Origin: a bacterium
Lineage (GTDB): Bacteria; Vulcanimicrobiota; Xenobia; Xenobiales; JADMJV01
Length of the DNA: 39,227 bases
Direction of reading: 5' to 3'
NCBI GenBank assembly: GCA_030149525.1
Contig: JASBRJ010000256.1
Span: 1 to 39,227, forward strand
Shown here: positions 662 to 38,892 of the stretch, piece after piece
Numbering within the stretch: position 1 is the stretch's first letter
Layout: every line of letters starts with the position of its first letter
Translations under genes and position numbers: made by a program
Notes under the pieces: model-generated
What the model was told of the DNA's origin: nothing
Seen by the model: the letters and a program-made list of their open reading frames with translations, nothing else
The model's database searches: none

Positions 662-1675
662 GTGGATCTGCGCCACCAGCATAATTTTTTCTGCCAGTTG
701 GACCTCTTGATCAAAACCGGGACGCCTATCAGTCAAGCTTTAGAGCTAGTGGCAGACTCGCCCGATCCGGAGAGCGCAGAGGCCGGACAAAAGCTTCTGA
801 GACGACTGGAGACAGGCGTTCCGTTATCGGCCAGTTTCGGAGAAGTCTTCGGGCCCGTAACGGGTGGCCTCTTAGGAATTGCCGAACGGACCGGCAGCCT
901 GGTCCAGACCCTGCAAGGGATAGCCTCTCGATGCTCCGATCAGATTCGACGCCAGGACGAAGTTCGCAATGCCGTTGTGTATCCGCTGGGGGTGCTTTTG
1001 CTGTCTATGGTCGTGGGCGCCACTATTATCGTCCTCCTTCTCCCCCAACTTCTTCCTTTTGTTACGAGCTTAGGAGTGCCGCTCCCCTGGCCCACCAGAG
1101 TCCTGGTCGTTATCAATCAATGGAGTTGGGTTTGGGCTAACCTGCTTTTTCTTCCTCTCTCCGCCCTGGCGGTGATGTCGCGGACCCACCCGGAAAGACT
1201 TGAGAGTCTCAAGCTTTGGCTCAGAGAGAGCACACCGCTTTTAGCTCCCATTCTTCGCCAACTCGATCTGGCTCACGCTTGTCAGGATCTCCGTCTGTGC
1301 ATAACGGCAGGCCTCGGTTTTCACGAAGCTTTGAAACTCCTGAGCCGAACCTGTCCCAGTCCCAGTCTTGCCAGGGAATTTACATCCCTCTCCAAGGCCA
1401 TCTTCCAGGGAGAGGAATTGGAAGTCTATTTTCAACAAAACGACGAATTGAAGGGGATGTTCGGCACTGCGGTCGTTCTAGGTCAGGAAGCCGGTAAGCT
1501 CCCGGAGATGTTGAACTGCGCGGCTCGGATCTTGCAAGACAATGCGGAGTTTCAGCTTCGAAGCCTAATAACCCTGATCGAACCGGCAGCCATGGCAACC
1601 GTAAGCCTCACGGTGGGCTTTCTCGCGGTAGCGGGCCTCATGCCGATCTATCAGGTGGTCACCGCGCCTTTCTAA
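662..1675 (+). CDS. Type II secretion / type IV pilus platform protein, GspF/PilC family (two T2SSF-like repeats, compact 337 aa)
   Basis: GTG start. Two T2SSF-type segments, each followed by hydrophobic TM stretches (VVYPLGVLLLSMVVGATIIVLLLP; IEPAAMATVSLTVGFLAVAGLMPIY). This is the typical GspF C-terminal motif arrangement. Confidence 0.7.
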   Translation: MDLRHQHNFFCQLDLLIKTGTPISQALELVADSPDPESAEAGQKLLRRLETGVPLSASFGEVFGPVTGGLLGIAERTGSLVQTLQGIASRCSDQIRRQDEVRNAVVYPLGVLLLSMVVGATIIVLLLPQLLPFVTSLGVPLPWPTRVLVVINQWSWVWANLLFLPLSALAVMSRTHPERLESLKLWLRESTPLLAPILRQLDLAHACQDLRLCITAGLGFHEALKLLSRTCPSPSLAREFTSLSKAIFQGEELEVYFQQNDELKGMFGTAVVLGQEAGKLPEMLNCAARILQDNAEFQLRSLITLIEPAAMATVSLTVGFLAVAGLMPIYQVVTAPF

Positions 1676-2838: not shown

Positions 2839-4302
2839 TCAGAAAAGATCGGGATGGGAGCGAGGAAAATGAAGCACGAAACTGGTGCCACGACCCGCCT
2901 TACTTTCCACTTCAATTCTTCCACCGTGAGCCTCCAACAGTCGGCGCACGCTAAAAAGACCAAGCCCGGTACCACGGATCTGGCGATGAGGCTCCAGTCG
3001 AACGAACGGATCGAAAAGCCGGCTCAACCCCTCCTCGGAAATACCCAGGCCTGTATCGGAGATGGTGAGTTTGTCCCAGTATTCCCCGCCCACGAGCGCG
3101 ACTGTCACCTTCCCTCCGTCGGGACTGTACTTGAGAGCGTTGTCTATCAGATTACAAATGATCTGACAAACGCGATCATTGTCTCCCAAGAGACGGGCGT
3201 TGTCCTCGATATCAATTTGGATGTCAAAGCTTTCCTGGCGCTGGGGACTGAGTTGCTCCAGCGCCATCTTCACCTCTCGCTCAACCATATCTCGGATGGG
3301 GATCCAGCAATAACGAAGATCGAGAGTCTGGCCACTCTCAAGCTTCTGGACATCGAGGTAAAGACCCACCAATCGAGTCGCCCTTTCCACCGCCGTATCA
3401 AGCCCCTCCAACACCTGTCGATGGGTGTTCTCCGGCAGCGGCCTTCGCAGCAAGGAAAGTCCTGTGCGCATCACAGTGAGAGGAGACTTCAAGTCGTGGG
3501 ATGCGATAGCCAAGAAAGCCGACAGCGTCTCTCGGTGAGCCTTGAGCTCACGATTCTGCGCGATCTCGGCAAACTGCCGCTGGGCTGCTGCCTCCCGTTC
3601 GGCCTGCAGCTTCATATTCTGGAGACAGATAGCCGCCTGAGCTGCAAGCCCCGGCATAAGATCAAGATCTTGGGAACCAAATTGATTGGACCGATGAGAA
3701 TCGACGTAGAGGACACCGAGAACTCGATTGCCCAGGATCAGTGGTTCACAAAGGACCGAACGAACTCCCGACATTCGAGTGTTCTCTCCGCTCCAATTCT
3801 CGCTCCTGTGGCCCACGGACCCCACGGTTCTGCGTTCACGCATAGCCGTTACGATGGCCGTGCGGGAAGCACGAAAAGCATCTTTACTCAACTCGTCGGC
3901 CGAGAGTCGATAGGTGGCTGCCACCACCAGTCCGCCCATAGGCTTACTAAGACTCGCTTGCCGTCGCCCCTGGAGAAGGAGATATCCTCTCTCGGCCTTG
4001 GTCAGTTCAACCGCTGAATTCACGATCATCTGAAAAAGCGAGGCGGGTTCATTTTCCGCCGTGAGCGAACGAGTGATTTCCAGAAGCCGTTTCAGCCTGG
4101 CGGCGCTGGCACCTCGGGTGCCGAATTCAAGACTTCCACTATTGCCCGTGGGTGGAGAAGTGGCCTGAGTGGGTTCGACCGTATGACGTCTGACGGAGTG
4201 GGAGAGAGACTGCTCGGCCACGGCGTTGTGATAAAGAGAAGCCGCATCGAAGGGGAGTTGCGCCTTTTCAGGCACTTTCTCTGGGCCGTAAGAAAAGAGC
4301 AT
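2839..4302 (-). CDS. Sensor histidine kinase with N-terminal GAF domain (GAF-HisKA-HATPase_c)
   Basis: H-box AIASHDLKSPLTVM. N/G boxes NLIDNALKYSPDGG and ISDTGLGISEEGLSRLFDPF...GTGLGLFSVRRLLEAHGG. A GAF-like region lies N-terminal to the H-box. Confidence 0.85.
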   Translation of the reverse strand: MLFSYGPEKVPEKAQLPFDAASLYHNAVAEQSLSHSVRRHTVEPTQATSPPTGNSGSLEFGTRGASAARLKRLLEITRSLTAENEPASLFQMIVNSAVELTKAERGYLLLQGRRQASLSKPMGGLVVAATYRLSADELSKDAFRASRTAIVTAMRERRTVGSVGHRSENWSGENTRMSGVRSVLCEPLILGNRVLGVLYVDSHRSNQFGSQDLDLMPGLAAQAAICLQNMKLQAEREAAAQRQFAEIAQNRELKAHRETLSAFLAIASHDLKSPLTVMRTGLSLLRRPLPENTHRQVLEGLDTAVERATRLVGLYLDVQKLESGQTLDLRYCWIPIRDMVEREVKMALEQLSPQRQESFDIQIDIEDNARLLGDNDRVCQIICNLIDNALKYSPDGGKVTVALVGGEYWDKLTISDTGLGISEEGLSRLFDPFVRLEPHRQIRGTGLGLFSVRRLLEAHGGRIEVESKAGRGTSFVLHFPRSHPDLF

Positions 4303-4346: not shown

Positions 4347-4718
4347 TCACAGACGACGCTGAATCCTCGCCACTCTGGTTTCCAGAGACCAGCGGCCTGA
4401 GGGAAAGACGGCTTCGCAACGGATGCTCTTGACTTTGACCGGGGTGGCACTCTCGGGAGTCACTTTCACGCGAATAAGGTAGTCCGTGTTATCCACCTTC
4501 ACCGACCGACTGCTGTCCACCACAGACTCAAAGGGCGCGCCCCTGATAGCCTCTACTTGACTCAAAACCAGCCTCTGGGCGGTCATTTTCTGCCACGCCT
4601 TTCGGTCGGCTTTGTGGGAAAACGGAAAGACGGCAGCAACCACTACCAGTGTCATAACCAAAAGACCGAGTGCCAGCAGAACCTCGGCCAGCAAGCCCCC
4701 TGATCTTTTACACCTCAT
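4347..4718 (-). CDS. Prepilin-type pseudopilin (GspG/GspI-like minor pseudopilin)
   Basis: N-terminus MRCKRSG|GLLAEVLLALGLLVMTLVVV is a class III signal: short basic leader, Gly, Glu at +5, then a hydrophobic helix. It is 123 aa. The start overlaps the STPK stop by 11 nt. Confidence 0.7.
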   Translation of the reverse strand: MRCKRSGGLLAEVLLALGLLVMTLVVVAAVFPFSHKADRKAWQKMTAQRLVLSQVEAIRGAPFESVVDSSRSVKVDNTDYLIRVKVTPESATPVKVKSIRCEAVFPSGRWSLETRVARIQRRL

Positions 4719-6048
4719 CCTTCACCTCAGCCAGGATTTGTTGGATAACTGCTGGGTCGGAGAGTCTCTCCGAGGGTCTTTTTCTAAGCAGGGCATCCAC
4801 CATTTCAGCCAGTTTCTCGGGAACACCGGTCACCCGGGGCGGCTTTTTGAAAGCGTGTTGGGACAAGACCTCCATGGAGGTGCGCCCGGTGAAGGGCGGC
4901 ATGCCCTCCAGCATTTCAAACAAGATAACTCCCGCCGCGTAATAGTCGCACTCTATCCCTGCGGTGGCTTGGATCTGCTCCGGACTCATGTAGAGAGGCG
5001 TCCCCATGGATTGACCGGTCCTGGTCAGCTTCTGCTCCGACTCGATGACCCGCGCTAATCCGAAGTCCAGAATTTTTAGCGTTTGCCGATCGGTGACAAA
5101 GAGGTTGGCAGGCTTGATATCGCGATGCACAATTCCCCGGGAATGGGCAAAAGCGAGCCCATCGATCAGTTGCTCAAAGAGCGAGACCACCTGCTTTTTT
5201 TTCAAAAGCGGCTGTGCCTTGAGCACTTTGTCCAAAGGCTTTCCGGGAACGAACTCGCTCACCAGGTAAGTCGACTCATTCAGCACACCGAAGGCATAAA
5301 GCTTGACGATATTGGGGTGCTTCAACCGGCCACCGATCTCGATCTCACGCTTCACCCGTTGAGCAACTTCGCCATCATCCTCTATCGGTTTCAAGAGCTT
5401 AATAGCGACGGTTTCCTCGCTGCCTTCTCTGCGAGCTTTATAGACGGTCGAGTAAGTTCCGACTCCTAGTTGATCCAGGATTTCGTAGTCGTCGAGCAGG
5501 TCTCCGGGCTTGAGAGTGCCCCCTTCCCTGAGCCGGCTTCTCAGAAGCTCCATCTCCTCGACCGCCGAGGCGAGAACCCTCTTGGTATCCTGCCGAGCCC
5601 TGTCAGCCTCATTACGATATCGCCAAAAACCTAGGGCGAACCCTCCGGCAAGAACCGAGAGCCCTAGAGTGACGCTGATCGGATAAAGAAACCAGATGGT
5701 GCGACACAAAGGAAGAAAGGCTTCCGGGCGGAGGTTTCTTTCCAACCTCCACAGGCCCGGACTCACGGCTTGCCCTTGAGTCAACTTCACCTGGCCCTCG
5801 TAGGTCTCAAATCCTGGGGCCAGAATCCTGACTCTGAACTGAAGAAGCTCAGGCTTTACAGGGACTTCTCGATGATTAGGAAGCAGATCTCCCTCCGGAG
5901 GGCTACCCGGCCAAAAGGCACGCACCTGGGCTTCCGGGGGAAAAATATCAAAGAAAACACGCTTACTTACAGCCTCTCCGAGAGTGGCAACAGAAAGCAT
6001 CAGCACCAGGGCTAGGAGGAAAGGAGACTTCACCGGAGTTGCGCCCAA
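4708..6048 (-). CDS. Hanks-type serine/threonine protein kinase, membrane-anchored with extracytoplasmic N-terminal domain and C-terminal kinase domain
   Basis: Kinase motifs LGVGTYSTVYKA (Gly loop), VAIKLLK, HRDIKPANLF, DFGLAR, GTPLYMSPE. N-terminal signal/TM (FLLALVLMLSVATLG), a ~95-aa extracytoplasmic segment, a second TM (IWFLYPISVTLGLSVLAGGFALGFW), then the kinase. Confidence 0.9.
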   Translation of the reverse strand: MGATPVKSPFLLALVLMLSVATLGEAVSKRVFFDIFPPEAQVRAFWPGSPPEGDLLPNHREVPVKPELLQFRVRILAPGFETYEGQVKLTQGQAVSPGLWRLERNLRPEAFLPLCRTIWFLYPISVTLGLSVLAGGFALGFWRYRNEADRARQDTKRVLASAVEEMELLRSRLREGGTLKPGDLLDDYEILDQLGVGTYSTVYKARREGSEETVAIKLLKPIEDDGEVAQRVKREIEIGGRLKHPNIVKLYAFGVLNESTYLVSEFVPGKPLDKVLKAQPLLKKKQVVSLFEQLIDGLAFAHSRGIVHRDIKPANLFVTDRQTLKILDFGLARVIESEQKLTRTGQSMGTPLYMSPEQIQATAGIECDYYAAGVILFEMLEGMPPFTGRTSMEVLSQHAFKKPPRVTGVPEKLAEMVDALLRKRPSERLSDPAVIQQILAEVKDEV

Positions 6049-7280
6049 TACACTCGAACCGCGTTACTCTGACCGTTGGCTGCTAGGTAGGAACTGGCAA
6101 AAGCGGTGAAGTCGGAAAGATGGACGACCCGAGAACCCAGACCCAGATTCACATTTCCGAGAGCCGGTTGGGTTGTGTTGACGGCATAGACGGCCCCCAG
6201 GACGGTGACGGCAAATAGGGGCCCGCCGTTCACGTTGCCATGGGTGTAAAGCACTCCCTGAAAAACACTAGGCAAAAGTATGTTGATATCGCCTCCGCTA
6301 AAAAGCGTCAGGCGATCGTTACCGGACAGATTCACGGCCGAAAGAAAGTTCGTTTCTCCCTCCACGAAGAGAGTTCCGGTGCCGGCGATCACACCGTTCA
6401 CTGTGAGATCTCCTTTGACATAGATCTCTGCGTTCACCATGGTCACCGCGCCGGTGAAGGTCACCGAATCGTCGTAATACACCTGGCCCGTCAGAATAGG
6501 AGTTATGTTGACCCCTCCCGGAAGAAGACTGACTCCTGGCTTCCCATCATTCACAAAATCTGTGATAACAAGGTCCGGGAGAGACTCGGGGGACTGATTT
6601 TCCTCAATATCTCCCAAGACATTGGAGGCGCCTCCTACCGTCACGCCCCCCACAGACCGGGCATCGCCGGTCACCCGACTCAGCCCCCCAAGCTCCAGGG
6701 AATTGAGGCCTGGAGCTCCCGAATAAACACTCCCGTCGAGGTCCGGAGAACCGGCTTGTGATAGAGATCTTGCTGCGGTGGCTGTGACGGTGTTCAGGTT
6801 CAGACGACCGGTCCCAGCGATGGCGTAAGGGATAGCCTCCAAGCGAACCAGTCCTTCTACCACCGCGACCTCACCGGAAGGGCTACTCCCTTTGGAGATG
6901 ACGTTGGCGTGATAGGGTGGGACGGTGCGCCCGTTATAGCCCGGGACGCCGGCCTGACCGGCGAGATTGTTCACCGAATAAAAAGAAGCGCTCGAAGGAC
7001 CAAAAGTAACTTCGTAGCGACTCTTGTCGGGCAACGTTAGGGTGAAGCTCTCGTTGCCGAGACCGACACCGGGATCGCGGGCAAGCTCTCCGGTGATCTG
7101 CTCCAATCCGGCTTCTGCCGCCGCCAGGGCAAGGGCTCGTTGCTGGGCTCGATTGACCGTTCTAAGATCGAAGGTCGCTAGATTCACCAACGTGAGTCCA
7201 AAGATCACTAGAAACATCATTACCAGGAAGGTGGCGGCAAGCGCCCCGCCCATGGGTCGAGAATAAAGCGACCGCCGCAC
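6030..7280 (-). CDS. Large pseudopilin, GspK-like (N-terminal pseudopilin helix + beta-rich C-terminal domain)
   Basis: Proposed GTG start at 7280 (MRRSLYSRPMGGALAATFLVMMFLVIFGLTLVNLATFDL...AAAEAGLEQ), preceded by AAGGAG about 10 nt upstream. GspK-type motif AxxEAGL with no Glu+5. The track ORF reaches 7382 but the upstream extension lacks an RBS. The start overlaps the preceding stop (TAGTG). Confidence 0.6.
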   Translation of the reverse strand: MRRSLYSRPMGGALAATFLVMMFLVIFGLTLVNLATFDLRTVNRAQQRALALAAAEAGLEQITGELARDPGVGLGNESFTLTLPDKSRYEVTFGPSSASFYSVNNLAGQAGVPGYNGRTVPPYHANVISKGSSPSGEVAVVEGLVRLEAIPYAIAGTGRLNLNTVTATAARSLSQAGSPDLDGSVYSGAPGLNSLELGGLSRVTGDARSVGGVTVGGASNVLGDIEENQSPESLPDLVITDFVNDGKPGVSLLPGGVNITPILTGQVYYDDSVTFTGAVTMVNAEIYVKGDLTVNGVIAGTGTLFVEGETNFLSAVNLSGNDRLTLFSGGDINILLPSVFQGVLYTHGNVNGGPLFAVTVLGAVYAVNTTQPALGNVNLGLGSRVVHLSDFTAFASSYLAANGQSNAVRVYWAQLR

Positions 7281-7976
7281 TACTCGTTCTCTCCTTGAAT
7301 TCGAGGGGTCAAGAGAAACTCTCGTCGAGCCACAATCCGGCCTTGAGGCGAGTCGGTGGTAAAGGTGAGAACAAAATTCCATTGCCTCTCTTCACTTGTC
7401 GGGGTCACTTCAAAGGTCTCGAGGTGGCCGGCCCAACGCTCTTCGACAATCCCTGAGGAGCAGGCGGCTATAAGCTCCGTCTGAGTGAACGCGAAAGGGT
7501 CGGTTGTGGGCAGAGGGGGCTTCTTCCATCTCAACCGAACCAATCGCCTTTTGGCCGAGTCGAGCTTCAGTATGGTGACGGTTCGCCAGAACGTCCGTCC
7601 GGAAACCGGATCGAAACTGGCAACAGAGTCGCTTCCTTCATGAGTTAAGAAGCTGACCGCCGAAAGAGTGGGCTGATTGACGCTGGTGACTGAATCCGGA
7701 GTGGAAGGGAGAAAGGCCGTTCTAATCCTGGCTTCGGCCAGAAGGGCCGCTTGCTCGATCTCAGCCCTGGCCCGAGTCTGCTTCCAGATTTGGAACCCGG
7801 GGAGTAGCACCTGGGCGATAATAGATAACAGAACTCCTATGAGCCCAAGAGCGATCAGACTCTCAAGGAGAGATAGTCCGGCGGTGCTATTCTGAGTTCT
7901 AGAGAAAATTTTGCACCATCCGAACCAACGGCAAGAGACAGGCCAGGGCGACCAGGCCCACCAGGAGACCGACAAC
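7280..7976 (-). CDS. Prepilin-type pseudopilin (GspJ-like size), start codon uncertain
   Basis: Class III signal ...NSTAG|LSLLESLIALGLIGVLLSIIA with Glu+5. There is no ATG/GTG/TTG within 25 codons upstream of the Gly. The candidate TTG starts at 7976 or 8035 overlap the 3' end of the GAF-GspF gene. The upstream extension is Trp-rich, which is an antisense artefact. Confidence 0.55.
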
Positions 7977-9572
7977 GGCCATAATGAGTGGTTCCACGAG
8001 GCCCTGGGCAGTCTCAACCGCCTCCTCCAGTTCAAAATTCAGGAGCCGCTCGATCACTCTGCACATTTCCGGCACCCTGCCGGTTTCTTCTCCTACCGCA
8101 ATGAACTCTGTGAGGAGTGGCGGAAAGAATGAAGAGCGTCGCAGTGCAAACTCGAGAGTATTACCGTTCATAACACGGGTTATGACCCGCTCCATCTCCT
8201 CCCGAACCGTTTCCGAGCCGGAGGCGATTCCGGCCAACCGCAGGCTGGCGTCCAAATAGAGGCCGGCTTCCAACTGCAGCCCCAGCGCCCTCACTAAACG
8301 GGTTGTGAGAAGCGTCTTGTAGATAGAGCTTGCAAGCGGGAGCCCCAGCAGCCAATTTTCGAAACGTCGACTCCGCAGAATGGGAGCAGCGACAGGCCTT
8401 GCCACTGCGGCTATAGCAAAGACTACCAGGACGGTGACAGGCTGAGAGAGCAGCCAAGAACCCGCCATGACCACTTGGCTCAACCAAGGTAGTTCCACGC
8501 CACTTTGAGTCAAGTTCTCGAAGAAGTCGTTCAGAAAGAGTGGTGGAGCGGCCAAGATAAGAATCAGACAGAAGACAAAAATGACGGTTGGATAGAGCAG
8601 TGCTGAAATCAATCGACCGCGGGTCTGAACCTCGCTTTCCACAGCTCTTGCGATAGTTTCAGCCGTGGTGTCGAGCGTTCCGGAGTTCTCTCCGACCTTG
8701 ATAAGTTTTCGTTCGTGGAGAGGAAAGAGTAGATGAAAGCGGCTCATGGCTCTGGAGAGGGGGCACCCTTTCTCCACATCCTCCAGGAGCTGGGCGGAGA
8801 AGGGAGCAAACCTGTTCTCGCTCTCAGAAAGGAGCTGAAGCGACCTGTGCACCGGAAAGCCTGAAGCGAGCATGCAGGCTAAAGCTCGGTAAAAGACGGC
8901 CTTATCGGATAAGCTCGGTCGAGGTCGTCGCCTGAGGTGAGGCGGCGCCTTCAGAATCTCCTCCGTTGCCCGCGGTTGGAGATCTGCTCCGCTCGCCCCT
9001 GTGGTTCTCCGGGCTTCCGCCGATACCGGTTCCTCGAGAGGGGGCTCCTGATGCCTTTCCAGCCGGGCCAGTGCTCTGGCTAAAGCCGTAGCCAATCTGA
9101 TGGCCCAACGAAGCTCCTCCAGATTGAACGCGTTGATGAGGGAGGCGCTATCGATGTAGATAAGACCCTTAGTGTTGCCTCCCATAATGACTGGAGCACA
9201 TAAAACGCTTCTCTGACCGATCCTCTTGACACTATGACTGGCTTGAAATTCGGCCTCGTTAAGGGCGTCGCCTATAACAATGGCCCTATTGGTGCGGCGG
9301 ACCCGACGAATGATGGCGCGACTGATCTCTTCGGTGGTGACAACGAAGGCGGCTTTGTTCCCGTAGCACGCTCTCACCGCCAAAGCACGATGCTCTTGAT
9401 GGAGTAGGAGAATGCGATCAGCGAAGGAGAAACGCTCCCGACAGAGTGAAAGCGCCTCCTCGAAAAGACTCTCGGGAGTCGTGGAGACAAGCTCTACCGG
9501 ATCCTGGCCGATCGGAAGAACGTCGCCGTCGGGTTCGCTTCCCGGACGGTCTAACTGACAAGAGTCAGCCAA
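7899..9572 (-). CDS. GAF domain fused to GspF/PilC-type secretion platform protein (557 aa)
   Basis: A ~180-aa N-terminal GAF-like fold (…VLCAPVIMGGNTKGLIYIDSASLINAFN…) and a basic linker (RRRPRPS). Two T2SSF repeats follow with three TM segments (LLYPTVIFVFCLILILAAPPLF; VVMAGSWLLSQPVTVLVVFAIAAV; LIMAVVGLLVGLVALACLLPLV). TTG start. Confidence 0.75.
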   Translation of the reverse strand: MADSCQLDRPGSEPDGDVLPIGQDPVELVSTTPESLFEEALSLCRERFSFADRILLLHQEHRALAVRACYGNKAAFVVTTEEISRAIIRRVRRTNRAIVIGDALNEAEFQASHSVKRIGQRSVLCAPVIMGGNTKGLIYIDSASLINAFNLEELRWAIRLATALARALARLERHQEPPLEEPVSAEARRTTGASGADLQPRATEEILKAPPHLRRRPRPSLSDKAVFYRALACMLASGFPVHRSLQLLSESENRFAPFSAQLLEDVEKGCPLSRAMSRFHLLFPLHERKLIKVGENSGTLDTTAETIARAVESEVQTRGRLISALLYPTVIFVFCLILILAAPPLFLNDFFENLTQSGVELPWLSQVVMAGSWLLSQPVTVLVVFAIAAVARPVAAPILRSRRFENWLLGLPLASSIYKTLLTTRLVRALGLQLEAGLYLDASLRLAGIASGSETVREEMERVITRVMNGNTLEFALRRSSFFPPLLTEFIAVGEETGRVPEMCRVIERLLNFELEEAVETAQGLVEPLIMAVVGLLVGLVALACLLPLVRMVQNFL

Positions 9573-9659: not shown

Positions 9660-10742
9660 TCAGATAGGAGTTTGCGATTCGAATCGCGTGGAGGGCAGGG
9701 GGCGGGGCAAAAAGTCAGGCGTCACAGGCCTCTCCTCCATGGGGATGTGGAACACGGGAGTGGCCCCACCTGAGAGCGGCGGAACGATCCAGGACCAGTT
9801 AGCATTGACTCTGCGGGAAGCTTTCTCTTCCAGCTCCATGTATTTCAAGAATTGTCTTGAAGCGGTGTGATGATCCACGATGGTCACTCCGGCGCGTTGG
9901 AAAGAGTGAAGCACAGCCCTGTTGAGTTCTACCAGAGTCTGATCTCGCCACAGAGTTCTTTCGTCGCTGATGTCATACCCGAATCGCCAGGCCAACTTGG
10001 GCAGCAGATTATAGCGATGAGGGTCGGCCAGATTTCTGGCCCCGATCTCCGTCCCCATGTACCACCCACTGAAGCAACAGGGAAAATGCAATCCGCCCAC
10101 CTCCAGCAAGTTGTTACTAATCACCGGAAGAGCGTGCCAACGGAGTCCGAGCCCCTTGAACCAGGCTTTCTCAGGATGCTCCAACTCCACCTCGAGGACC
10201 GCCTCCGATGGAAGTTCAAAAAGCTCCACTCGAGGGCCGTTTTGGATGGCCAGCGGAAGAACCTGAAACGGCTTACCCGTCGGCTCCCATCCCAAAGCTC
10301 GGAGCCGTGCCACAAACTCGGCCTGCTCAGGGTCGTCGGCATATCGGATAAGTTGGGAATTCAAAACGGTGGGAGTGTCGGGCCCGAAGACGGTGAGAAT
10401 CGGCTTTATGAGCCCGCCGTTCGTCGATTCCACCAGATGCTCGACACAGCTTTCGAATGTCTCCCTTGAACTTCGAAGGTGCCGAAAATCTCTGACCTCC
10501 AGTTGACGCCACACCAGACGGCCGATACAGCGAGCGTTGTTCCGCCAGGCTAGCTTCCCCCCAAAATCGAGTTCACTGGGACTAAGAGTATAGGTTCCTG
10601 TGGCCAGGAATTCTGCTTCTATAGCTTTCCATCGCTCAGATTTCTCCGCTGGAGAGAGAAGCTGTTCCTCGACCAATTCCTGGAGAAAGGCATGCACCGA
10701 CTCCCGGAGAGCCGGTGGAACGTTCTTTTGAAGACGAGGCAT
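9660..10742 (-). CDS. nos: Bacterial nitric-oxide synthase, oxygenase domain only (bNOS)
   Basis: Signature motifs AWRNNARCIGRLVW (heme-thiolate Cys), FSGWYMGTEIGARN and NWSWIVPP. The 360-aa length with no reductase or Zn-hook N-terminus matches bacterial NOS (e.g. Bacillus, Deinococcus). Confidence 0.9.
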   Translation of the reverse strand: MPRLQKNVPPALRESVHAFLQELVEEQLLSPAEKSERWKAIEAEFLATGTYTLSPSELDFGGKLAWRNNARCIGRLVWRQLEVRDFRHLRSSRETFESCVEHLVESTNGGLIKPILTVFGPDTPTVLNSQLIRYADDPEQAEFVARLRALGWEPTGKPFQVLPLAIQNGPRVELFELPSEAVLEVELEHPEKAWFKGLGLRWHALPVISNNLLEVGGLHFPCCFSGWYMGTEIGARNLADPHRYNLLPKLAWRFGYDISDERTLWRDQTLVELNRAVLHSFQRAGVTIVDHHTASRQFLKYMELEEKASRRVNANWSWIVPPLSGGATPVFHIPMEERPVTPDFLPRPLPSTRFESQTPI

Positions 10743-10770: not shown

Positions 10771-12003
10771 CTACACCCTGGGTTGAATGATGGTTTCCAC
10801 TGCGCCGTCCGCTGTTACGGTGAGAAATCTCCCCTGATGGAAAGCTGTGGGCTGAAAGTCTTCCAGCCGGCAGAGCATAGCTCCGGTCTTTATGTCCCAA
10901 ATCGTTGTTCCGCCAAGTGGAGAGACGGCGTAGAGCACTTCGTGAAAAGCAAGCCAACCTTGATTGTCGACCTCGGGCCCGGGAAACCAGTCCACCTCCC
11001 GTCCACTGGAGACATCAAATATTCTAATGGCGGGGAAAAGAGATTTGTCATCCACCCCTCCCCCCCAAACGGCCAGACGCTGATCATTGAGCCAAACCAG
11101 AGGCGTGTCCCAAACATACTCCCGATGACAGAACTCTTTAACACTTTCTCCGTCGTCGGACTCATAAGGGTTTTCAGAGAGCCAGGGGTCTATATCCCAG
11201 GTGCGCACCGTACCGAGGGGATGCCACATCCATCCGTTCTCAGCCAGTCGACTCTGCTCAGGCGAGGGCACGAGTCGACAGTGAAAATAGTCCAGCCGCT
11301 GATAATCGGCTCGTTCGGTGAGCACTTCCAAAGTCTTGAGATCGGTAACCTGCAGCATATTCCAATCGGTGGCGTGGACAAGGCAGAGGCGATTTCTGTT
11401 GGAGATCAGGGCCGCCGGGAAAGAACAGTGGCGAAGGTGATATCCGCCTCGCTGAAATCTGAGGACGACCTCTCCGCTGCTCACGGAATAGACATAACCT
11501 TTGTTATGAAAGTCGTTGACCAGGAGCGCGAAGTCACCTAAAACCTGAAACTGAAACGGTTTGTGGAAGTCCACTTTACAGTGGATGAGAGCCGCTCCCG
11601 GCTCCTGGCCCAGCCAGACGAACTCCTTCCGAGGAGTGATGCCCAGCCAACCCTTCGAGGTCCCCGTTACGGCCAACAGGCCTTCGCTATGAAGCACCTG
11701 CTCTTGCCGCTCGAAGGTGACCTCTGCCTTGGCCGTTTCAGGTCGACCCGTGATCTGACCAAGGGTCGCGAGTTTTTCAATTCGCTCAAACTGTTCGGGC
11801 GTCACATTCTGAAGATGCTCTCGGCAGCAATCCAGACAATGCAGTTCGTAATCTTTTCCCTGACCGGTGTAGTGCTTAAGATAGTCCAGGTTATCGTTCA
11901 AATCGTCGTCGGTGGCGGAGCAGAGCATGGCGCATGCTCGGTTCTGAAGTTTTTCCTTGAGTTGCATGGTGAGCATCCATTTATCTATTGATAGCTCTTT
12001 CAT
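10771..12003 (-). CDS. Hypothetical protein, Cys/His-rich N-terminus (HCLDCCREH) + probable beta-propeller (WD40-like) body; immediately upstream of nos
   Basis: 410-aa ORF with repeating beta-strand motifs (IWDIKTG, IFDVSSG, VTDLKT) and an N-terminal C/H cluster. A 28-nt gap to nos suggests co-transcription. Confidence 0.6.
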   Translation of the reverse strand: MKELSIDKWMLTMQLKEKLQNRACAMLCSATDDDLNDNLDYLKHYTGQGKDYELHCLDCCREHLQNVTPEQFERIEKLATLGQITGRPETAKAEVTFERQEQVLHSEGLLAVTGTSKGWLGITPRKEFVWLGQEPGAALIHCKVDFHKPFQFQVLGDFALLVNDFHNKGYVYSVSSGEVVLRFQRGGYHLRHCSFPAALISNRNRLCLVHATDWNMLQVTDLKTLEVLTERADYQRLDYFHCRLVPSPEQSRLAENGWMWHPLGTVRTWDIDPWLSENPYESDDGESVKEFCHREYVWDTPLVWLNDQRLAVWGGGVDDKSLFPAIRIFDVSSGREVDWFPGPEVDNQGWLAFHEVLYAVSPLGGTTIWDIKTGAMLCRLEDFQPTAFHQGRFLTVTADGAVETIIQPRV

Positions 12004-12053: not shown

Positions 12054-13706
12054 CTAACTGGCCTTATTTTTGTCCAGGTGACTCATAAGTCGCTCGGCCC
12101 CCTTGTCGGACAAGAGTCCAGGAGCCTGTTCGAGCAGCTTGGAGAGCCCTTCGCGCATCCCGGCCGGCAAGCCCGCCGAGAGTCCTTGAGCCGCTACGCC
12201 CAAGGCCATACCTTGATTCCAGGAAGCACTCATACTGGCCAACGTGTCGGGTCCGCCAAAGACCTGGACGTTGGCCTCGGACCAGGCAAGCCCCATGGCT
12301 TCGGCCCGAGCGATTTCGACTCTGGCTTCAGCTTCGATGCGATGCTTGGCCAACTCAAAAGCCAGTAGCTCCGGGGTGTAGGCTTCAGCGCGCTTTCTGA
12401 GGCCCTCCGCTTCAGCGGCAAGCTTTGCAGCAGTCGCCTCGGCTTCATTAAGGGCCTTCTGACGAGCAAGCTCGATCTTGCGGGCCTCCACTTCAAGGCG
12501 ACGCTCCTCGAGTTCCACCGCGGCGAGCCCGTCCACCATGGCCTGAGCCTTTGCGCCTTCGGCTAGAAGCTTCTGCTCCTTAGCTCGAGCATCGGCTTTA
12601 GTGGCCAGCGCCTGGGCCTCTTGCTCAGCAGCCTTCACCTTGGCCTGGGCTTCGATGAGCAGAACTTCTTCTGCTTTCTCGGCATCGATTCTGGCCAGTG
12701 TTCGGACTCGCTCGGCCTCCTTTACCGCTTCGAATTCGAGCTTCTCCGCTTCAATTCGAGTGGACTCCATCTGCGCAAACTCACGCAGTTGGAGTTCCTT
12801 CTCCTGAACATTGCGGTCAGCTTCGAGAAGGGCTTGCTTCTTCTCACGATCGGCAAGTTCCAACTCGCGCGCCTTCGCTCGGCGAGCCAACTCCAGGCTC
12901 TGATTGCGCTCCTGAAGCTCCAGCTCTTTTTCGATCTTGGCCACCGAAAGCTCATGCTCTTTGGAGAGCTGAACCCGCTCTTTCTCCTTGCCTCGACCAA
13001 AAAGAGCCTCATCTTTGGCTATATCCATCTCCTGGATAGAGCGCTCGGTGAGCTTCTTCTCTTCAGCCTGACTTCGGGTCTCCTTCTCTACCGTGCGAGT
13101 CTTGGCTGTCTTTTCAGCCTCGATAGCTTCGGTAATCTCCCTGTCCTTATGAGCTTCACGCTCGGCAATGAGAGACTGAACGACTTCGCCGCCGATGTTG
13201 GTGATTTTGACACTGATCAGATCGAAGCCCAGACTTCTGGCAACGGCGTTCATTCCTGGAGAGCTCTGCTCAGCAAGACAGTCTTTCGCTCTCATGATCT
13301 CGTCCAGAGGAAGGGTTACCGAGGCGCTTCTTAACTCGGCTTCCGCGACTTTGGAGATCTCGCTTGTCAGAAGCTCAATATCTTCACCGATAAGACGGGC
13401 CGCCACCCCCGGCTCCGCAAGCTTAATGATAGCTATGGCCGAGATGGTGAAAGGCGTGTTGTCGGAATCGCGCACATGGAGTTCTTCCAGATTGACCGGA
13501 ATAGCTTTGGTGCTGAGCTTGAAAACTTGAGTCCAGCGGGTCTTCCAGTAGGACGTATCACCATCGGCTTGATGGATTCGCTGACCGTCTTTTTTGTTAA
13601 CGACATGGACTTCATCCGGTGGGACGACAATTTTACGCGGAATCAGTCCAACTTTATCTTCTCCGCTCACATAGCGGGAAATCTCTTCATGAAGGTGAGG
13701 ATGCAT
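12054..13706 (-). CDS. Flotillin-like SPFH/band-7 domain protein with long Glu/Ala/Lys/Arg-rich coiled-coil (FloT/YqiK-like)
   Basis: N-terminal SPFH domain, then about 300 aa of EA-repeat coiled coil (…EAEKLEFEAVKEAERVRTLARIDAEKAEE…), characteristic of flotillins. Confidence 0.85.
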   Translation of the reverse strand: MHPHLHEEISRYVSGEDKVGLIPRKIVVPPDEVHVVNKKDGQRIHQADGDTSYWKTRWTQVFKLSTKAIPVNLEELHVRDSDNTPFTISAIAIIKLAEPGVAARLIGEDIELLTSEISKVAEAELRSASVTLPLDEIMRAKDCLAEQSSPGMNAVARSLGFDLISVKITNIGGEVVQSLIAEREAHKDREITEAIEAEKTAKTRTVEKETRSQAEEKKLTERSIQEMDIAKDEALFGRGKEKERVQLSKEHELSVAKIEKELELQERNQSLELARRAKARELELADREKKQALLEADRNVQEKELQLREFAQMESTRIEAEKLEFEAVKEAERVRTLARIDAEKAEEVLLIEAQAKVKAAEQEAQALATKADARAKEQKLLAEGAKAQAMVDGLAAVELEERRLEVEARKIELARQKALNEAEATAAKLAAEAEGLRKRAEAYTPELLAFELAKHRIEAEARVEIARAEAMGLAWSEANVQVFGGPDTLASMSASWNQGMALGVAAQGLSAGLPAGMREGLSKLLEQAPGLLSDKGAERLMSHLDKNKAS

Positions 13707-13967: not shown

Positions 13968-15224
13968 GTGCCCGATATAGACCATTTCCTAAAATCAGAA
14001 TCTGTTCATGGCCGCTATCAAGACTCGGGCGACTTTACGGTCTCGCCGGAAAAAGCTCTTGAAAAGGTTCGGGAATTCAACTTCGCTCGTCCCTATGACT
14101 GGGTCCTGGCTCTCATTCAAGCCGGTCATCTTGTGCTTGGAGGAGCCAGAAGAATGGACATCTCAGGGTCCCGGAAAGGGATCGAAATTCACCTCCACGG
14201 GGTCGAACCCGACACCCTGAAAGCCTTGTATCCGATCCTCTTATCGTTTGAAAAGACGACGCCCGCCTTGGAAGCGTTTCGCCGATGCGCCTGGGGTTTG
14301 CTCAACACTTCTCGATTCACCCTTCGTCAGGGTGATTTGATCGTGCACTGGGCCGAGGAGTCACTCACGACCGAGACAGCAGCGCCGAAAAAGAAAGTGG
14401 GCGATTGGAACCTTGTTTGGGAGGTCTACGACAAAGGTGTCGAGCAACAAAGTTGGCGAAAACAATCGGCCTTACGAGCTCGAATTCTTCTGGACATCAA
14501 ATCCGCTGTCGAAGAAAAAGCCTACCACAGCACCGTCCCCGTGCTGCTGGATCTAAGAAGCATACGAACGTCTCCCAACTTAGGGGGAAACTCACCCTGT
14601 TCCCCTCTCGTCGTAGCGCGCGGAAAGCCTGGATTGAACACAGGTCAATTGGTCAAGCAACCCTGGAACGAATTCCGACTCCTCCATTCCGAGCCACTCT
14701 TTGAGTTTGAGCAAAGGCACGCTTCTCTGACCCTGCTCTACTGTTGTCGACTCGATCTGAAGCCGGCCGGTCCGGGATACTCGCTCAAGCGCCCGAGTCT
14801 CGAACCGTCGCGCTCCAGCCTGCGACTCAATAAGAACGGTGTCGTTGTGTACCAAAAACCGGCGTCGACACCGACCCCCGTCTCCTGTCACATCATCGCC
14901 GACTGCAACAACCTGCAGACGGATATCACCGGCTTGGCGGCAAGAGAGGAAGACGCCCTACGATTTCTGGCAAATCTTGAGAGTCAATATGGCTCCTCGC
15001 TCAACGAGATAGCCCTCAAGCTCTGGAAAGACATCAACCGAGCCATCTCTACCAAGCCGTTCATATTCGATCAACTCTCCCACCCCACCGATCCCGAGGA
15101 GGAAGCCAAAAGCCAGGGGGTTCTCTCCTGGATTTTCACTCCGTTGACTTCTAGTTCAGGTAGCGTATTAGGCCCGCTGGTGCTCCGTGCCGTTAGGGAA
15201 ACGAAAGACTTTTATCTTCACTGA
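13968..15224 (+). CDS. Hypothetical protein (418 aa), no recognised domain
   Basis: Long ORF with protein-like composition, divergent from the flotillin gene across an AT-rich intergenic region (13707-13967). Confidence 0.5.
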   Translation: MPDIDHFLKSESVHGRYQDSGDFTVSPEKALEKVREFNFARPYDWVLALIQAGHLVLGGARRMDISGSRKGIEIHLHGVEPDTLKALYPILLSFEKTTPALEAFRRCAWGLLNTSRFTLRQGDLIVHWAEESLTTETAAPKKKVGDWNLVWEVYDKGVEQQSWRKQSALRARILLDIKSAVEEKAYHSTVPVLLDLRSIRTSPNLGGNSPCSPLVVARGKPGLNTGQLVKQPWNEFRLLHSEPLFEFEQRHASLTLLYCCRLDLKPAGPGYSLKRPSLEPSRSSLRLNKNGVVVYQKPASTPTPVSCHIIADCNNLQTDITGLAAREEDALRFLANLESQYGSSLNEIALKLWKDINRAISTKPFIFDQLSHPTDPEEEAKSQGVLSWIFTPLTSSSGSVLGPLVLRAVRETKDFYLH

Positions 15225-15568
15225 ACATCTAGGCCGGCCTCAGAGCTCCGGGAACAGAGCAAGGCCTGCTCCAGCCACTCCAGGTTGAGCGGCAACTCAA
15301 TCCCTAGCTCCACATGCCCGGTCCGTGGATTCTGTCCTTGCCAAACGACTTTGCCGAGACAGGTTTGAGAGCTTGAGGTGTCGGATTGCGTAAGAGCCGA
15401 CAACTTAATGGACTTGCCGACTTTTCGAGAAGGCCGACAGGACAAACGAACTCCCCCCTGACTGACGTCGGTTAAGATACCGAGACCGCCCTGATTATAG
15501 GCGTCGTAGTGGACCAGAATACGACAAAGGTGACGTTGATGAATACGGTGGTTGCTGAGGGTGTTCAT
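15218..15568 (-). CDS. PilZ-domain protein (putative c-di-GMP receptor), ~116 aa from internal ATG
   Basis: PilZ signature QRHLCR (RxxxR) followed 21 aa later by DVSQGG (DxSxGG). The ATG at 15568 overlaps the stop of the upstream 88-aa ORF (ATGA). Confidence 0.6.
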   Translation of the reverse strand: MNTLSNHRIHQRHLCRILVHYDAYNQGGLGILTDVSQGGVRLSCRPSRKVGKSIKLSALTQSDTSSSQTCLGKVVWQGQNPRTGHVELGIELPLNLEWLEQALLCSRSSEAGLDVQ

Positions 15569-15831
15569 GGCGTCTGCGCCCCCTCGAAATAGGTATCGAG
15601 ATGTCGTGGCTGCATCTCTTCGGGTAACGATACATTGGTACCGACTCCGAGGGAGAACGACTCCAGGGGAGCATAGAAATCGCGCTGGCTTCGCTCCCAC
15701 TCCTCGTCGAGGACTCGAAGGTTGTTGATAATGTGTAAAGCTCGGTAGACAGCTTCAGTGGCACTGGGAGTCGGCTGCTCGTTCATGCAGCTTTCCAGGA
15801 GTGCCTCCCAAGATAGGTCGGTCTTTGACAT
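15565..15831 (-). CDS. Small hypothetical protein (88 aa) translationally coupled to PilZ gene
   Basis: ORF ending in an ATGA overlap with the PilZ start. Acidic, protein-like composition. No homolog recognised. Confidence 0.4.
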   Translation of the reverse strand: MSKTDLSWEALLESCMNEQPTPSATEAVYRALHIINNLRVLDEEWERSQRDFYAPLESFSLGVGTNVSLPEEMQPRHLDTYFEGAQTP

Positions 15832-16113: not shown

Positions 16114-16743
16114 ATGAACATCAACATCAATTTTGGATATCAAACTCGTGGATGCTGGGGAGGCGGCTGGAGACCTTCACCTGTGTATCGCCCGGTCAAC
16201 TCAAACCACGGTAACCTCGACGGCGCTGTTGTCGGCAACCGACACTGGTTTTGGGGCGGTGGCGCACCGGTGCGGGGCTATGGCGTCGATCTGAACAACA
16301 ACGGACGCTACGACCGCGGACAAGACGGAGTCCTCGCCTTCGACTTCAACCGCGACGGCAAACTCGGCCGCAAAGAGATCACCCAGTCGCGCGAAATGTT
16401 GAGAGCTTTCGGTGGATGCGACGATATCAACGGCGACGGCAAAGTCAGCTTTTCCGAAAGAAACAAAGCCCGCAGATACCGAGCCCGAATGCAACGAATG
16501 GACCTCAATCGCGACGGCAAACTCAGCACCTACGAACTCGCGCGAGGCGGTGCCCTGGTCGGTGTGGACCATAACCGCAACGGTAAGTTTGGCCGCCATG
16601 AAACTTACAGCCCCTACAACATTCCTACTCCTGGTTTCGGACGTGGACGCCTCGACTTCGTGGACCCTTCGCGAGGATACAGCCAGGTTAATCACGGATG
16701 GGCCTGGAGTTTTCCTCCTCACTATGGCTGCTGCTGCCGATAG
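16114..16743 (+). CDS. EF-hand calcium-binding protein (4-5 canonical 12-residue loops), Gly/Trp-rich N-terminus, C-terminal CCC
   Basis: Loops DFNRDGKLGRKE, DINGDGKVSFSE, DLNRDGKLSTYE, DHNRNGKFGRHE (DxNxDG…E) plus a degenerate DLNNNGRYDRGQ. SD-like GAAGGG 9 nt upstream of the ATG. Confidence 0.75.
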   Translation: MNININFGYQTRGCWGGGWRPSPVYRPVNSNHGNLDGAVVGNRHWFWGGGAPVRGYGVDLNNNGRYDRGQDGVLAFDFNRDGKLGRKEITQSREMLRAFGGCDDINGDGKVSFSERNKARRYRARMQRMDLNRDGKLSTYELARGGALVGVDHNRNGKFGRHETYSPYNIPTPGFGRGRLDFVDPSRGYSQVNHGWAWSFPPHYGCCCR

Positions 16744-23942: not shown

Positions 23943-23978
23943 ACTAGATTGCCTACGGACACAATTTGGAGCAGAGAC

Positions 23979-26900
23979 ATGAGATTATCCTGGAAACAAC
24001 CCGCCATAGCTTTGGTGGCTTTAATAAACTTCGGCTGTGGTGCCGTGGAAACCGGATTCACGGCCAACCCCACCTCACCCGGCACACCCATCGCGGCCAA
24101 CACCACGGAAGCCGTAGCAGGCTCACCCGGGGCCGCCGAGTTTCTGGCTCGTAACGCGGCCCAGGGCTTTGCCTCGGTAGAAGACCGCAGTGTGGGCCAG
24201 AACCGCTTTCTGGTCTTCACCAGTCGTGGAGACCTCATCGCCGCCGATACCAACGGACGACGGGATATCTATCTAAGAGATCTTCGTACCGGTGAAATGA
24301 GGTTGGTCAGTGTGGCCACCAACGGCACCCAGGGTAACGGTGACTCCACTCAAGCCTCCATTTCCGCCGACGGGCGTTTCGTGGTCTTCCGCTCGGCCGC
24401 TACCAACCTGGTGACAGGCGACGGTAACGGTGTGACCGATATCTTTCTTCATGAGATCGCCACCGGGACCACCACTCGAGTGAGCACCGCCACCGGTGGA
24501 GCAGAAGTAAGCGGCGCCAGCCTGACGCCTGCCGTCTCGGCCAACGGACGCTACGTGGTGTTTGCTTCTTCTGCAACAAACCTGGTGGCTACCGACAGCA
24601 ACGGCGCTCAAGATATCTTCTTAAAAGACGTCACCACCAACACCACAACCCTGGTGAGCAGCAACTCGGCCCAAACAGATTCGGCCAACGGCAACTCCTA
24701 CGACCCCGCCATCACCGCCGGAACCACCACCGAAGGAGAGTTCATCGCCTTCTCCACCGAGGCCACCGACATCGTGGCAGGCGGTCTTAACGGACAGCGC
24801 CAGGTGGTCCGTATCGAACGAGCCACCCCCGCAAACCGGGTTCTGGTGAGTCAGAGCGCCGGGGCCGTGCAAGCCGACGGTCCGTGCTACGAACCCAGCC
24901 TCTCTAACGACGGTAACACCGTGGCCTTCTTCACCCTGGCCACCAACCTCGGCGCGGTGGCCGACGGCAACGGCTTCTTCGATGTTTACACCAGAAATAT
25001 TTCCGGAAATACCACCACCAACCAGAGTGTGAACACCGGTGGCAACCCCTCCGACGGTCACAGCGGCTATCCCAGTCTCTCCGCCAACGGTTCGGTTGTG
25101 GCTTTTGGAAGTCTCGCCACAGACCTTGTAGCAGGTGACTCCAACGGACGATTCGACGTTTTTCGACGAGAGAGCGGGTCCACGAGCCTGGCCAGCCAGG
25201 CCACCGACAGCACCGCCGGAAACTCCGATTCCGATCTTCCCGGCATATCGCTTGACGGTCGCTATGTGGCGTTCCGCTCGGCGGCCTCCACGCTTTCCAG
25301 TAACGATAGCACTACTGATGATGACATTTTTCTGAGAGATTCCCTCACCCCGGCAACGGTGCTGCAGAGCATCGCATGTCGCATTCTAGCGACTTTTGCC
25401 GGGGTTTCCGGTTCCTCGTTCACCACCGGGCTGAATCCTATTGACACAGCAGTCGCTGACTTCGATGGCGACGGCAACCTAGATGTGGCAACAGCAGATA
25501 GAGGCGACAACACCGTCTCTGTCCTGCTCGGCAACGGGAGCGGAGGCCTAGGGACCGCCTCAAGTTTCGCTGTTGGGACGACCCCTGTTCCTATTCTGGC
25601 TCGAGACTTTAACGGCGACGATAACGTCGATCTTGCCGTAGCGAACTATGCCAGCGGGAACGTCTCCATCCTCATAGGAGACGGGACCGGGGGATTCGCA
25701 GCCGCCGCCAACTTTATGGTAGGAGCCGCAGGGGGCGCAAATCCCCTCGCTATGGTTACCGCCGACTTCAATGGCGACAACAACCTGGATCTGGCTGTTG
25801 CTAACGACAGCACGGACGATACGACGATTCTTTTAGGTAACGGAGCCGGCGGTTTTACGCTCGCGGCGAACCTCGACCATGGGTTCGTCGCTGTAAGAGA
25901 TATCGCCCAGGGCGACTTCAACGGCGATACCTTTCCCGACCTGGCGGTCTTGAAATCAGACAGTGAATTTCGTCTCTTTTTCGGAGATGGTACGGGAGCT
26001 TTCGGACCGTCAACCTCAATTTCAACAGAGAGCAGTCCCGCGGCCATCACGACCACTGATTTCAACGGCGACGGGAACCTGGATATCGCGACACTCCACA
26101 CGTTTAATGACGTTCAAGTCTTCTTGGGAGATGGCACAGGGGGCTTTTCAGCCCCGACCGGCTTCCCTCCAGCTGTCGGTGGCTCCAGCGGGGGTGCACA
26201 GAGAGCGAAAATCCTTCCCGTGGATCTGGACGGAGACGGGAATCTGGATCTCATCTCGACCGGGGGATCGCGAGGTCTCTCTTTTCTACCAGGAAACGGG
26301 GACGGTACATTCGGAGCCGCGACAGAAATCGACGAGCCAGGGCGTTCCCTGAGTGTCGGAGACTTTGACAATGATGGATACCTCGATCTTGTAGCGACGG
26401 ATTCATCTCCTCCCAACGACGATCAAGTTCTCATCCTCCTCAACCAACGCCCCGACTGGCCCGGTCTCGGTTCCAAGACAGATTACTCTACTAGTTCCCG
26501 TCCCGAAAATCTCGCCATGGGAGACTTGGACGGCGACGGAGACCTCGACTTCGTGGTCAAGAGCAGCGATAGTGACAATCTGTCCATCAGACTCAACAAC
26601 GGCTCGGGAGTCTTCTCCGGTTCGGACATCGCTCCGGTCTCCGGCTTGAATTCAGCGGTGGTAAGACTGGCCGACTTCAACAACGATGGATATCTCGACA
26701 TCTTGCTCCTGGCCAGTGGAGACTACGCGCTCCTCACCAATGACGGTCAGGGAGGGTTCAGCGTCAACGCCGTCTCGTTCTTATCCGGCGGTGGACCCAA
26801 AGTGGCTGTAGCCGATATGAACGGGGACGGATTCTTAGATTTCGTGGTGGGAGCGTCAAGCTCTACGGTGACTCGAACCTTCTTTAACGACACAGCCGGC

Positions 26901-27494: not shown

Positions 27495-27506
27495 GGAGAA
27501 CACGCT

Positions 27507-31019: not shown

Positions 31020-31045
31020 GCAAATCCCTCAAGGAAAGAAAAATC

Positions 31046-38402: not shown

Positions 38403-38420
38403 TTCATTTCTCCACTCAGA

Positions 38421-38873: not shown

Positions 38874-38892
38874 AGGATCTAAGCGCCCCTCT

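Follow-up and report, generated by a model that had tools for sequence, protein, structure and literature searches.

The window analyzed here is positions 1 to 39,227 of contig JASBRJ010000256.1 (assembly GCA_030149525.1), from a member of the uncultured Xenobia (Vulcanimicrobiota). On its minus strand, positions 7899..9572 (stop codon included) encode a 557-residue protein, initiated at TTG, in which a GAF domain is joined to a platform protein of the GspF/PilC type. Four partner genes accompany it, all on the same strand and abutting or overlapping; they encode a mid-size prepilin-like protein, a large pilin-like protein, a membrane Ser/Thr kinase, and a small prepilin-like protein. The fusion is the signature gene of this conserved, often multi-copy, five-gene cassette of the Xenobia. 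The preliminary description of this DNA had singled out the fusion and overlooked its conserved partners, namely the adjacent kinase gene and the three pilin-like genes.

A GAF-Platform Fusion

The fusion protein has three parts. Pfam, AlphaFold2 (AF2), and Foldseek all identify the first as a GAF domain, predicted to be cytoplasmic (residues ~31-175; 9048..9482); GAF_2 (PF13185; 39.6 bits, gathering score 28.6) and GAF (PF01590; 32.6 bits, gathering score 22.4) both match residues 31-168. Next comes a variable, disordered linker rich in Pro, Ser, Thr, and basic residues (residues ~176-220; 8913..9047), recognized by its low pLDDT (the per-residue confidence of the model) and by a drop in sequence identity. 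The remainder (7902..8912) is the platform core, with two T2SSF repeats and three transmembrane helices, delimited by Pfam, NCBIfam, hydropathy, and fold match. The T2SSF model (PF00482) is found twice, at 134 bits.

The NCBIfam GspF profile TIGR02120 aligns through its positions 54-399 with fusion residues 213-554. Because this alignment begins at profile position 54, the GAF domain and linker stand in place of the ~55-residue N-terminus of ordinary GspF. The full-length AlphaFold model (mean pLDDT 87.7) has a confident GAF domain (30-175), a disordered stretch (178-199, with pLDDT <50), and a confident platform (220-557). Sequence and model together confirm a genuine fusion of a GAF domain to an inner-membrane platform protein of the GspF/PilC type, as the preliminary description had proposed. 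Its basic linker between the GAF domain and the T2SSF repeats is likewise present, and its view that platform proteins do not ordinarily carry such a fusion holds.

The platform part itself is conventional in layout. Hydropathy analysis identifies three hydrophobic segments (319-352, 367-400, and 521-557), concordant with the AF2 helices; by homology, this canonical arrangement puts the GAF domain in the cytoplasm. The first cytoplasmic domain of the platform superposes on those of OutF, EpsF, and T. thermophilus PilC (TM-score 0.83-0.90; root-mean-square deviation 1.1-1.7 Å), and the best full-length sequence match in the PDB is M. xanthus PilC (3jc8; E 1e-24). Every NCBIfam equivalog score, however, falls far under its cut-off: 187.8 vs 424 for GspF, 163 vs 700 for PilC, 162 vs 401 for HofC, and 118 vs 240 for ComGB. 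The fusion therefore belongs to the GspF/PilC superfamily, but is no equivalog of GspF, PilC, HofC, or ComGB.

Two further observations concern the N-termini of platform proteins at large. In precomputed Pfam lists, PF28597 occurs on most canonical GspF matches and on none of the GAF-fused proteins; this family may represent the ordinary GspF N-terminus. Other platform proteins carry N-terminal extensions of 250-480 residues: P0140 (755 residues), P0179 (860), P0165 (612), and P0116 (604). Two of these, P0140 and P0179, were checked individually and contain T2SSF with no Pfam-detectable N-terminal domain. Additional, unrecognized N-terminal fusions may exist on platform proteins.

The Five-Gene Cassette

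The mid-size prepilin-like protein (~209 residues; 7280..7909 or 7975) has a class III signal, ...STAG|LSLLESLIALGL. Its start is ambiguous: either ATT at 7909, giving an 11-residue leader, or TTG at 7975, giving a 33-residue leader and a 77-nt overlap. No canonical start codon lies near the platform stop, and gene callers disagree even among near-identical contigs, predicting no gene at locus L014, a truncated one at L015, and an upstream start at L017. The Pfam N_methyl model scores 16.3 bits here, under its gathering score of 21.2, and is recorded for orthologues; those in all cassettes carry the sequence G|F(S/T)L(V/I)E.

The large protein (416 residues; 6030..7280) is pilin-like in the style of PilX_N and GspK. 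Its GTG start overlaps the preceding stop as TAGTG. The N-terminus is hydrophobic and lacks Glu+5; the PilX_N match is weak in the window, and is recorded for the orthologues in L001, L003, and L004. A Gly-rich repeat region looks beta-helix-like by eye, and its PDB match, to gp5, is not significant (E 0.17).

The kinase (441-446 residues; 4708..6048; Pkinase 201.6 bits) is a membrane protein of the Hanks type. It comprises an N-terminal hydrophobic segment, an ectodomain of ~90 residues that is weakly PEGA-like (16 bits, under the gathering score of 20.8), one transmembrane helix, and the kinase domain. Residues K217, E235, HRD308-310, N315, and DFG328-330 are invariant across 10 cassette kinases, which are orthologous over their whole length; the enzyme is predicted to be catalytically intact.

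The small prepilin-like protein (123 residues; 4347..4718) reads ...RSG|GLLAEVLLALGLL, and its orthologues have N-termini of the RG|FSLLE type. At all loci, both the small and the mid-size proteins display the class III prepilin N-terminus G|[FL][ST]L[LIV]E, after which comes a hydrophobic helix.

Cassette content at other loci was established through tblastn searches with the window proteins and through the gene calls of those loci. The fusion, a Ser/Thr kinase of ~440 residues, and proteins of ~125, ~205, and 410-570 residues occur together at 14 of 14 independent loci with enough flanking sequence. Those counted are L001, L003, L004, L008, L009, and L010 from the tight family (profile score >450 bits; L011 is partial and was excluded); L019, L021, L022, L023, and L024 from the broad family; and L027, L028, and L029 from the JAANMU01 assembly (L026 was excluded, being 93% identical to the L019 cassette).

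Gene order within the cassette varies. In the window and its nearer relatives the platform gene comes first, then those for the mid-size protein, the large protein, the kinase, and the small protein; at other loci the kinase gene is immediately upstream of the platform gene, which it overlaps by 1-4 nt in L003, L019, L022, L023, and L024. Some assemblies hold several copies: four complete cassettes, on as many contigs, in JAANMU01 (L026-L029), and two in GCA_016199555.1 (L021 and L022). The platforms of these multi-cassette assemblies are 41-93% identical to each other. The presence of several divergent cassettes in single assemblies points to paralogous expansion.

The ATPase motor is consistently missing from the vicinity. 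The GspE Walker-A motif, G[PS]TGSGK[ST], was found nowhere within 10 kb of any cassette in 483 kb of sequence plus six further loci; the positive control (L012) is a canonical GspE-GspF pair from Nomurabacteria. Likewise, no partner ATPase lies in the ~2 kb past the window's left end. The cassette is thus always apart from its presumed motor, and the locus is no complete type II secretion system (T2SS) or type IV pilus system.

A role in anti-phage defence was considered and rejected: PADLOC matches the generic kinase domain only, and none of the other cassette proteins. Separately, genes for PilZ-domain proteins occur 2-6 kb from cassettes at three unrelated loci (window 15218-15700, minus strand; L001 7080-7793; L021 16964-17698). 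This recurrence may hint at cyclic di-GMP (c-di-GMP) involvement, or may be coincidence.

Family and Distribution

A word-indexed search returned 15 clusters that combine GAF and T2SSF, with 38-99% identity along the full length; the cluster at 99% identity occurs on 17-18 contigs. An exhaustive hidden Markov model (HMM) search then covered 1.84 billion representatives, with clusters taken at the 50% identity level. Beyond the tight family it retrieved dozens of proteins of 500-550 residues that match the profile from end to end at 250-345 bits. Among the best 150 HMM matches, Pfam detects a GAF domain in 55 of the 73 proteins longer than 450 residues, and at least 55 clusters share the architecture. 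N-terminal GAF fusions among homologues, the subject of a survey proposed in the preliminary description, are thus recurrent.

Named sources are mostly metagenome-assembled genomes (MAGs) of Candidatus Xenobia or Vulcanimicrobiota. A few are labelled Armatimonadota, "CPR1", Selenomonadaceae, or Burkholderiales. Contigs with cassettes are also found in MAGs bearing labels outside the Vulcanimicrobiota: Selenomonadaceae (L009), Burkholderiales (the partial L011), and Armatimonadota (L021 and L022). Such labels may reflect mis-binning, outdated naming, or a truly wider distribution.

In the full-text literature we found no paper on a GAF-PilC, GAF-GspF, or GAF-T2SSF protein, nor on the cassette, and papers on the Xenobia discuss neither pili nor the cassette. 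The cassette is an easily recognized marker, which public annotation now reduces to a "type II secretion system F family protein" or a "GAF domain-containing protein".

The GAF Domain and Its Tether

An AlphaFold model of residues 1-178 (pLDDT 80; predicted TM-score 0.77) has the classical GAF topology of helices (H) and strands (E): H33-47, E53-60, E63-70, H85-94, E98-100, E122-130, E133-142, and H151-175. In Foldseek comparisons with the PDB, all 50 of the top 50 matches are GAF domains, with TM-scores up to 0.74-0.77 and model pLDDT of 80-88 within the domain. The top match is the regulatory GAF domain of Nlh2, in a structure titled inactive state by its depositors. Among NCBIfam profiles, NifA (TIGR01817) matches the domain with an E of 5e-5.

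A signature is kept down to 23% identity: R53, G71, S84, S114, (R/Q)S.LC125.P127, and G136..Y139.D141. Its polar members R53, S84, S114, C125, Y139, and D141 are invariant or near-invariant in 41 sequences. As a whole the domain is conserved about equally with the platform; the linker is not. Identity within the tight family is 56% for the GAF domain, 52-59% for the platform repeats, and 19% for the linker; corresponding values for the broad family are 29%, 34%, and 13%.

Linker length in homologues ranges from 39 to 101 residues, and Ser and Thr are abundant throughout. A tether that is long, predicted to be disordered, and variable in length argues against allosteric transmission through a rigid helix. 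Rather, these properties favor a tethered GAF domain that would bind or occlude a partner over one that acts through a rigid signaling helix.

The unconserved N-terminal tail (residues 1-30; window 9483-9572) is enriched in a "DS" motif, often (S/T)DS(G/S). It is present in 17 of 41 sequences, whereas shuffled controls average 5.3 and never exceed 13. Another subset of homologues has "SLGS" in this tail. Both are possible phospho-acceptor or docking motifs.

What Might the GAF Domain Do?

The reading that we favor, with a probability of roughly 55%, is that the cassette is a signal-gated platform and initiation module, in which a tethered regulatory GAF domain is linked to the kinase and for which ATPase, major pilin, and peptidase come from elsewhere. 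The three pilin-like proteins would form an initiation or tip complex on a dedicated platform. Assembly of the filament or pseudopilus would be driven by a GspE/PilB-type ATPase, a major pilin, and a prepilin peptidase, all encoded elsewhere and probably shared. The tethered GAF domain would gate the platform's cytoplasmic face, for example by controlling ATPase docking; the partner that it binds or occludes might be the kinase, the ATPase, or, within the platform itself, the first cytoplasmic domain. Its input might be a ligand, phosphorylation or binding by the co-encoded kinase, or both. Since the kinase is always present, phosphorylation of the GAF-linker region, or binding to it, would be the most economical coupling.

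Several points weigh against this proposal. Families for a GspE/PilB ATPase, a secretin, GspL/M or PilMNOP, a major pilin, and a prepilin peptidase all went unrecognized in the window, and the machine into which the cassette would plug is hypothetical. The globular domains of the pilin-like proteins show no homology to GspI/J/K or PilV/W/X that Pfam or PDB profiles can detect: the T2SSI, T2SSJ, and T2SSK models give no Pfam match at E<=1, and the PDB profile searches reach only N-terminal pilin helices. Such homology was therefore rejected, and the likeness to the GspI/J/K or PilV/W/X initiation complex is confined to size, order, and N-terminal chemistry. Gene adjacency, moreover, shows functional linkage and not its direction, and all of the data derive from MAGs and metagenomes.

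The multi-copy layout invites an extension of this proposal, which we offer as a speculation with the odds clearly against it. Each cassette might be a self-contained, signal-specific initiation unit, in which a receptor kinase would sense the envelope or the surroundings with its ectodomain, the platform would be gated by its GAF domain, and the tip complex would be private. A single ATPase and major pilin would serve all of these units, which would compete for them, the tip (an adhesin or a cargo) being chosen through phosphorylation or ligand gating of the platform. Platform-level, kinase-dependent switching between alternative filaments is, to our knowledge, undescribed.

The strongest competitor, which we think perhaps half as probable as our own proposal, makes the GAF domain a classical sensor of a small molecule or cyclic nucleotide (cNMP), controlling the platform directly through ligand and independently of the kinase. 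Direct ligand control at the platform is what the preliminary description had proposed. This alternative fits the genuine GAF fold of the domain, whose core is conserved; moreover, the best PDB sequence match is the cAMP-binding GAF-B domain of PDE10A (E 1e-4), and the cAMP-binding GAF domain of Lcd1 is near the top of the Foldseek matches. Yet ligand-free, bilin, cAMP, and enzyme GAF domains are equally represented among those matches. The cNMP-type NKFDE signature (Asn-Lys after beta5) is also absent: in the PDE10A GAF-B alignment the NK positions, which are not conserved, are occupied by D141-S142, of which D141 does not vary within the tight family and hardly varies within the broad one. 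We therefore rejected a cNMP-type GAF domain; the GAF domain named in the preliminary description is a true one, but has no canonical cNMP site. More generally, neither sequence nor predicted fold implies a ligand class. The disordered, length-variable linker seems ill-suited to helix-mediated allostery, and the obligate kinase partner is left unaccounted for.

Somewhat less probable is a GAF domain that senses nothing, and serves instead as a structural module for platform dimerization, scaffolding, or kinase docking. Many GAF domains have no known ligand, and the inactive-state title of the top fold match, Nlh2, is in keeping with this. Most of the conserved residues are typical GAF_2 fold determinants, common also to the GAF domain of a histidine kinase encoded nearby, and a long helix (H151-175) closes the domain at its C-terminus. 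On the other hand, the near-invariance of R53, S84, S114, C125, Y139, and D141 exceeds the usual needs of a scaffold, although this is not decisive.

An adjacent gene suggests a third alternative, in which the GAF domain would sense nitric oxide (NO) or redox state and couple NO synthesis to control of a pilus or of secretion. The oxygenase domain of a bacterial NO synthase (NOS; PF02898, 410 bits) is encoded at 9660..10742, 87 bp upstream of the fusion and on the same minus strand, and relatives at 79% identity retain it there. The near-invariant Cys125 and Asp141 fit such a role, as does the RSVLC.P motif common to the neighboring GAF histidine kinase. However, NOS accompanies the cassette only in its close relatives L014-L018 (>=79% identity), and is absent beside it at all distant loci. 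We therefore rejected it as a functional partner. The non-heme-iron, NO-sensing GAF domain of NorR has the ligand set R75, D96, D99, C113, and D131. Alignment to it by hhalign, with an approximate NorR query, gave a probability of 5%, with only D141 falling on D131 and the Cys out of register; a NorR-type iron/NO GAF domain was set aside as improbable. We regard the NO alternative as very improbable.

Finally, a merger of separate GAF and GspF genes through sequencing or assembly error, which the preliminary description had raised and for which poor conservation of the linker is the sole point in favor, is rejected as next to impossible, because the open reading frame runs unbroken on 17-18 contigs in the case of the 99%-identical protein, and because independent projects have yielded dozens of divergent clusters with the same architecture, on separate contigs and in separate assemblies, at identities as low as 23%.

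Comparison with Known Systems

How the platform couples the ATPase to pilin extraction is among the least understood steps of type IV pilus and T2SS function, and the regulation known so far targets mostly the ATPase or transcription. The fusion resembles the canonical platform proteins of the T2SS and type IVa pilus (GspF, PilC, EpsF, and OutF) in its two T2SSF repeats, three transmembrane helices, and superposable first cytoplasmic domain. It differs in that a GAF region of ~175 residues and a disordered linker of ~45 residues replace the N-terminal ~55-80 residues, in that its gene is never found beside a GspE/PilB ATPase gene, and in its scores far below the equivalog cut-offs.

Second messengers control the ATPases of type IV filaments, through c-di-GMP sites in the N-termini of MshE and PilB and through the FimX-PilZ-PilB pathway. 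Here, too, a regulatory module sits directly on a core motor component instead of acting via transcription; this module, however, is a GAF domain, and is on the platform rather than the ATPase.

In GAF-regulated σ54 activators (NifA, Nlh1/Nlh2, and NorR), an N-terminal GAF domain controls an ATPase-dependent output. These proteins supply some of the closest relatives of the platform GAF domain, by sequence (NifA) and by fold (Nlh2). In the fusion, by contrast, the output is a membrane platform and not an AAA+ domain, the linker is disordered, and the NorR iron-ligand pattern does not appear to be reproduced in the alignment with the approximate query.

Control through Thr phosphorylation is exemplified by PpkA-PppA-Fha1 of the H1 type VI secretion system of P. 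aeruginosa and by ArnC/ArnD of the archaellum. These share with the cassette a Hanks-type kinase that sits in the membrane, bears an extracytoplasmic domain, and is encoded inside the gene cluster of the machine; the placement of the kinase gene within that cluster implies post-translational gating of assembly. The cassette differs in that its machine would be a type IV filament platform, and in lacking both an FHA domain and a phosphatase.

The final comparison is with initiation complexes of minor pilins or pseudopilins: GspH/I/J/K, FimU-PilVWXE-PilY1, and the multiple minor-pilin clusters of M. xanthus. The cassette has a similar small, mid-size, and large set, in which the large member lacks Glu+5 as in GspK, and one genome holds several paralogous sets. 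In contrast to these complexes, the globular parts have no detectable homology, and each set comes with its own platform and kinase. We know of no described system in which a minor-pilin set has a private platform and kinase.

A sensor-bearing platform that is locked to a receptor kinase and to private minor pilins would amount to a natural experiment on the platform as a control point, and the multi-copy layout strengthens this case. For this phylum, which is known from little besides metagenomes, the GAF ligand and the kinase substrate offer a concrete, testable handle. Specialists in type IV filaments should find the result surprising; it rests on metagenomic sequence, from which we infer the mechanism.

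Neighboring Genes

Several genes that flank the cassette in the window are not part of it. Immediately beyond its last gene, after a gap of 44 bp and on the same strand, is a GAF-HisKA-HATPase histidine kinase gene (2839..4302, minus strand). Its GAF domain is 27% identical to that of the platform (E 6e-10), with the common motif G.RSVLC.P...G..Y.DS; the two domains might read the same signal. A compact, ComGB-sized, orphan GspF paralog (337 residues, two T2SSF repeats) is encoded at 662..1675 on the plus strand, and shares 25% identity with the fusion's platform part. It is convergent and monocistronic, its flanking genes being on the opposite strand, and neither an ATPase nor a pilin gene adjoins it. 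The preliminary description correctly reported this second GspF without a GAF domain. It also placed the histidine kinase gene in the same operon, to which that gene may or may not belong; the histidine kinase is not a conserved partner. Both genes, together with NOS and an SPFH gene, accompany the cassette only in relatives that are at least 79% identical; the histidine kinase and the compact GspF are absent at distant loci, and so were rejected as cassette members.

Two small elements coincide with the cassette borders, which is a weak hint as to its limits. A weak terminator-like hairpin (4352-4335) lies just after the small pilin gene and before the histidine kinase gene, and a weak promoter-like site (9663-9635) lies in the gap between NOS and the platform gene. 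The totals of the promoter/terminator scan are at chance level.

Upstream of NOS are a gene for a 410-residue protein (10771-12003) and then the SPFH/Band7 gene (12054-13706), an arrangement kept in relatives at 79-99% identity but missing from distant cassette loci. Farther away, an EF-hand protein is encoded at 16114-16743. Positions 23949-31019 (plus strand) hold tandem genes for two giant FG-GAP/VCBS-repeat proteins (1181 and 1170 residues), followed by a beta-helix protein gene (31010-32557), and a carAB-argR block occupies 34103-38939.

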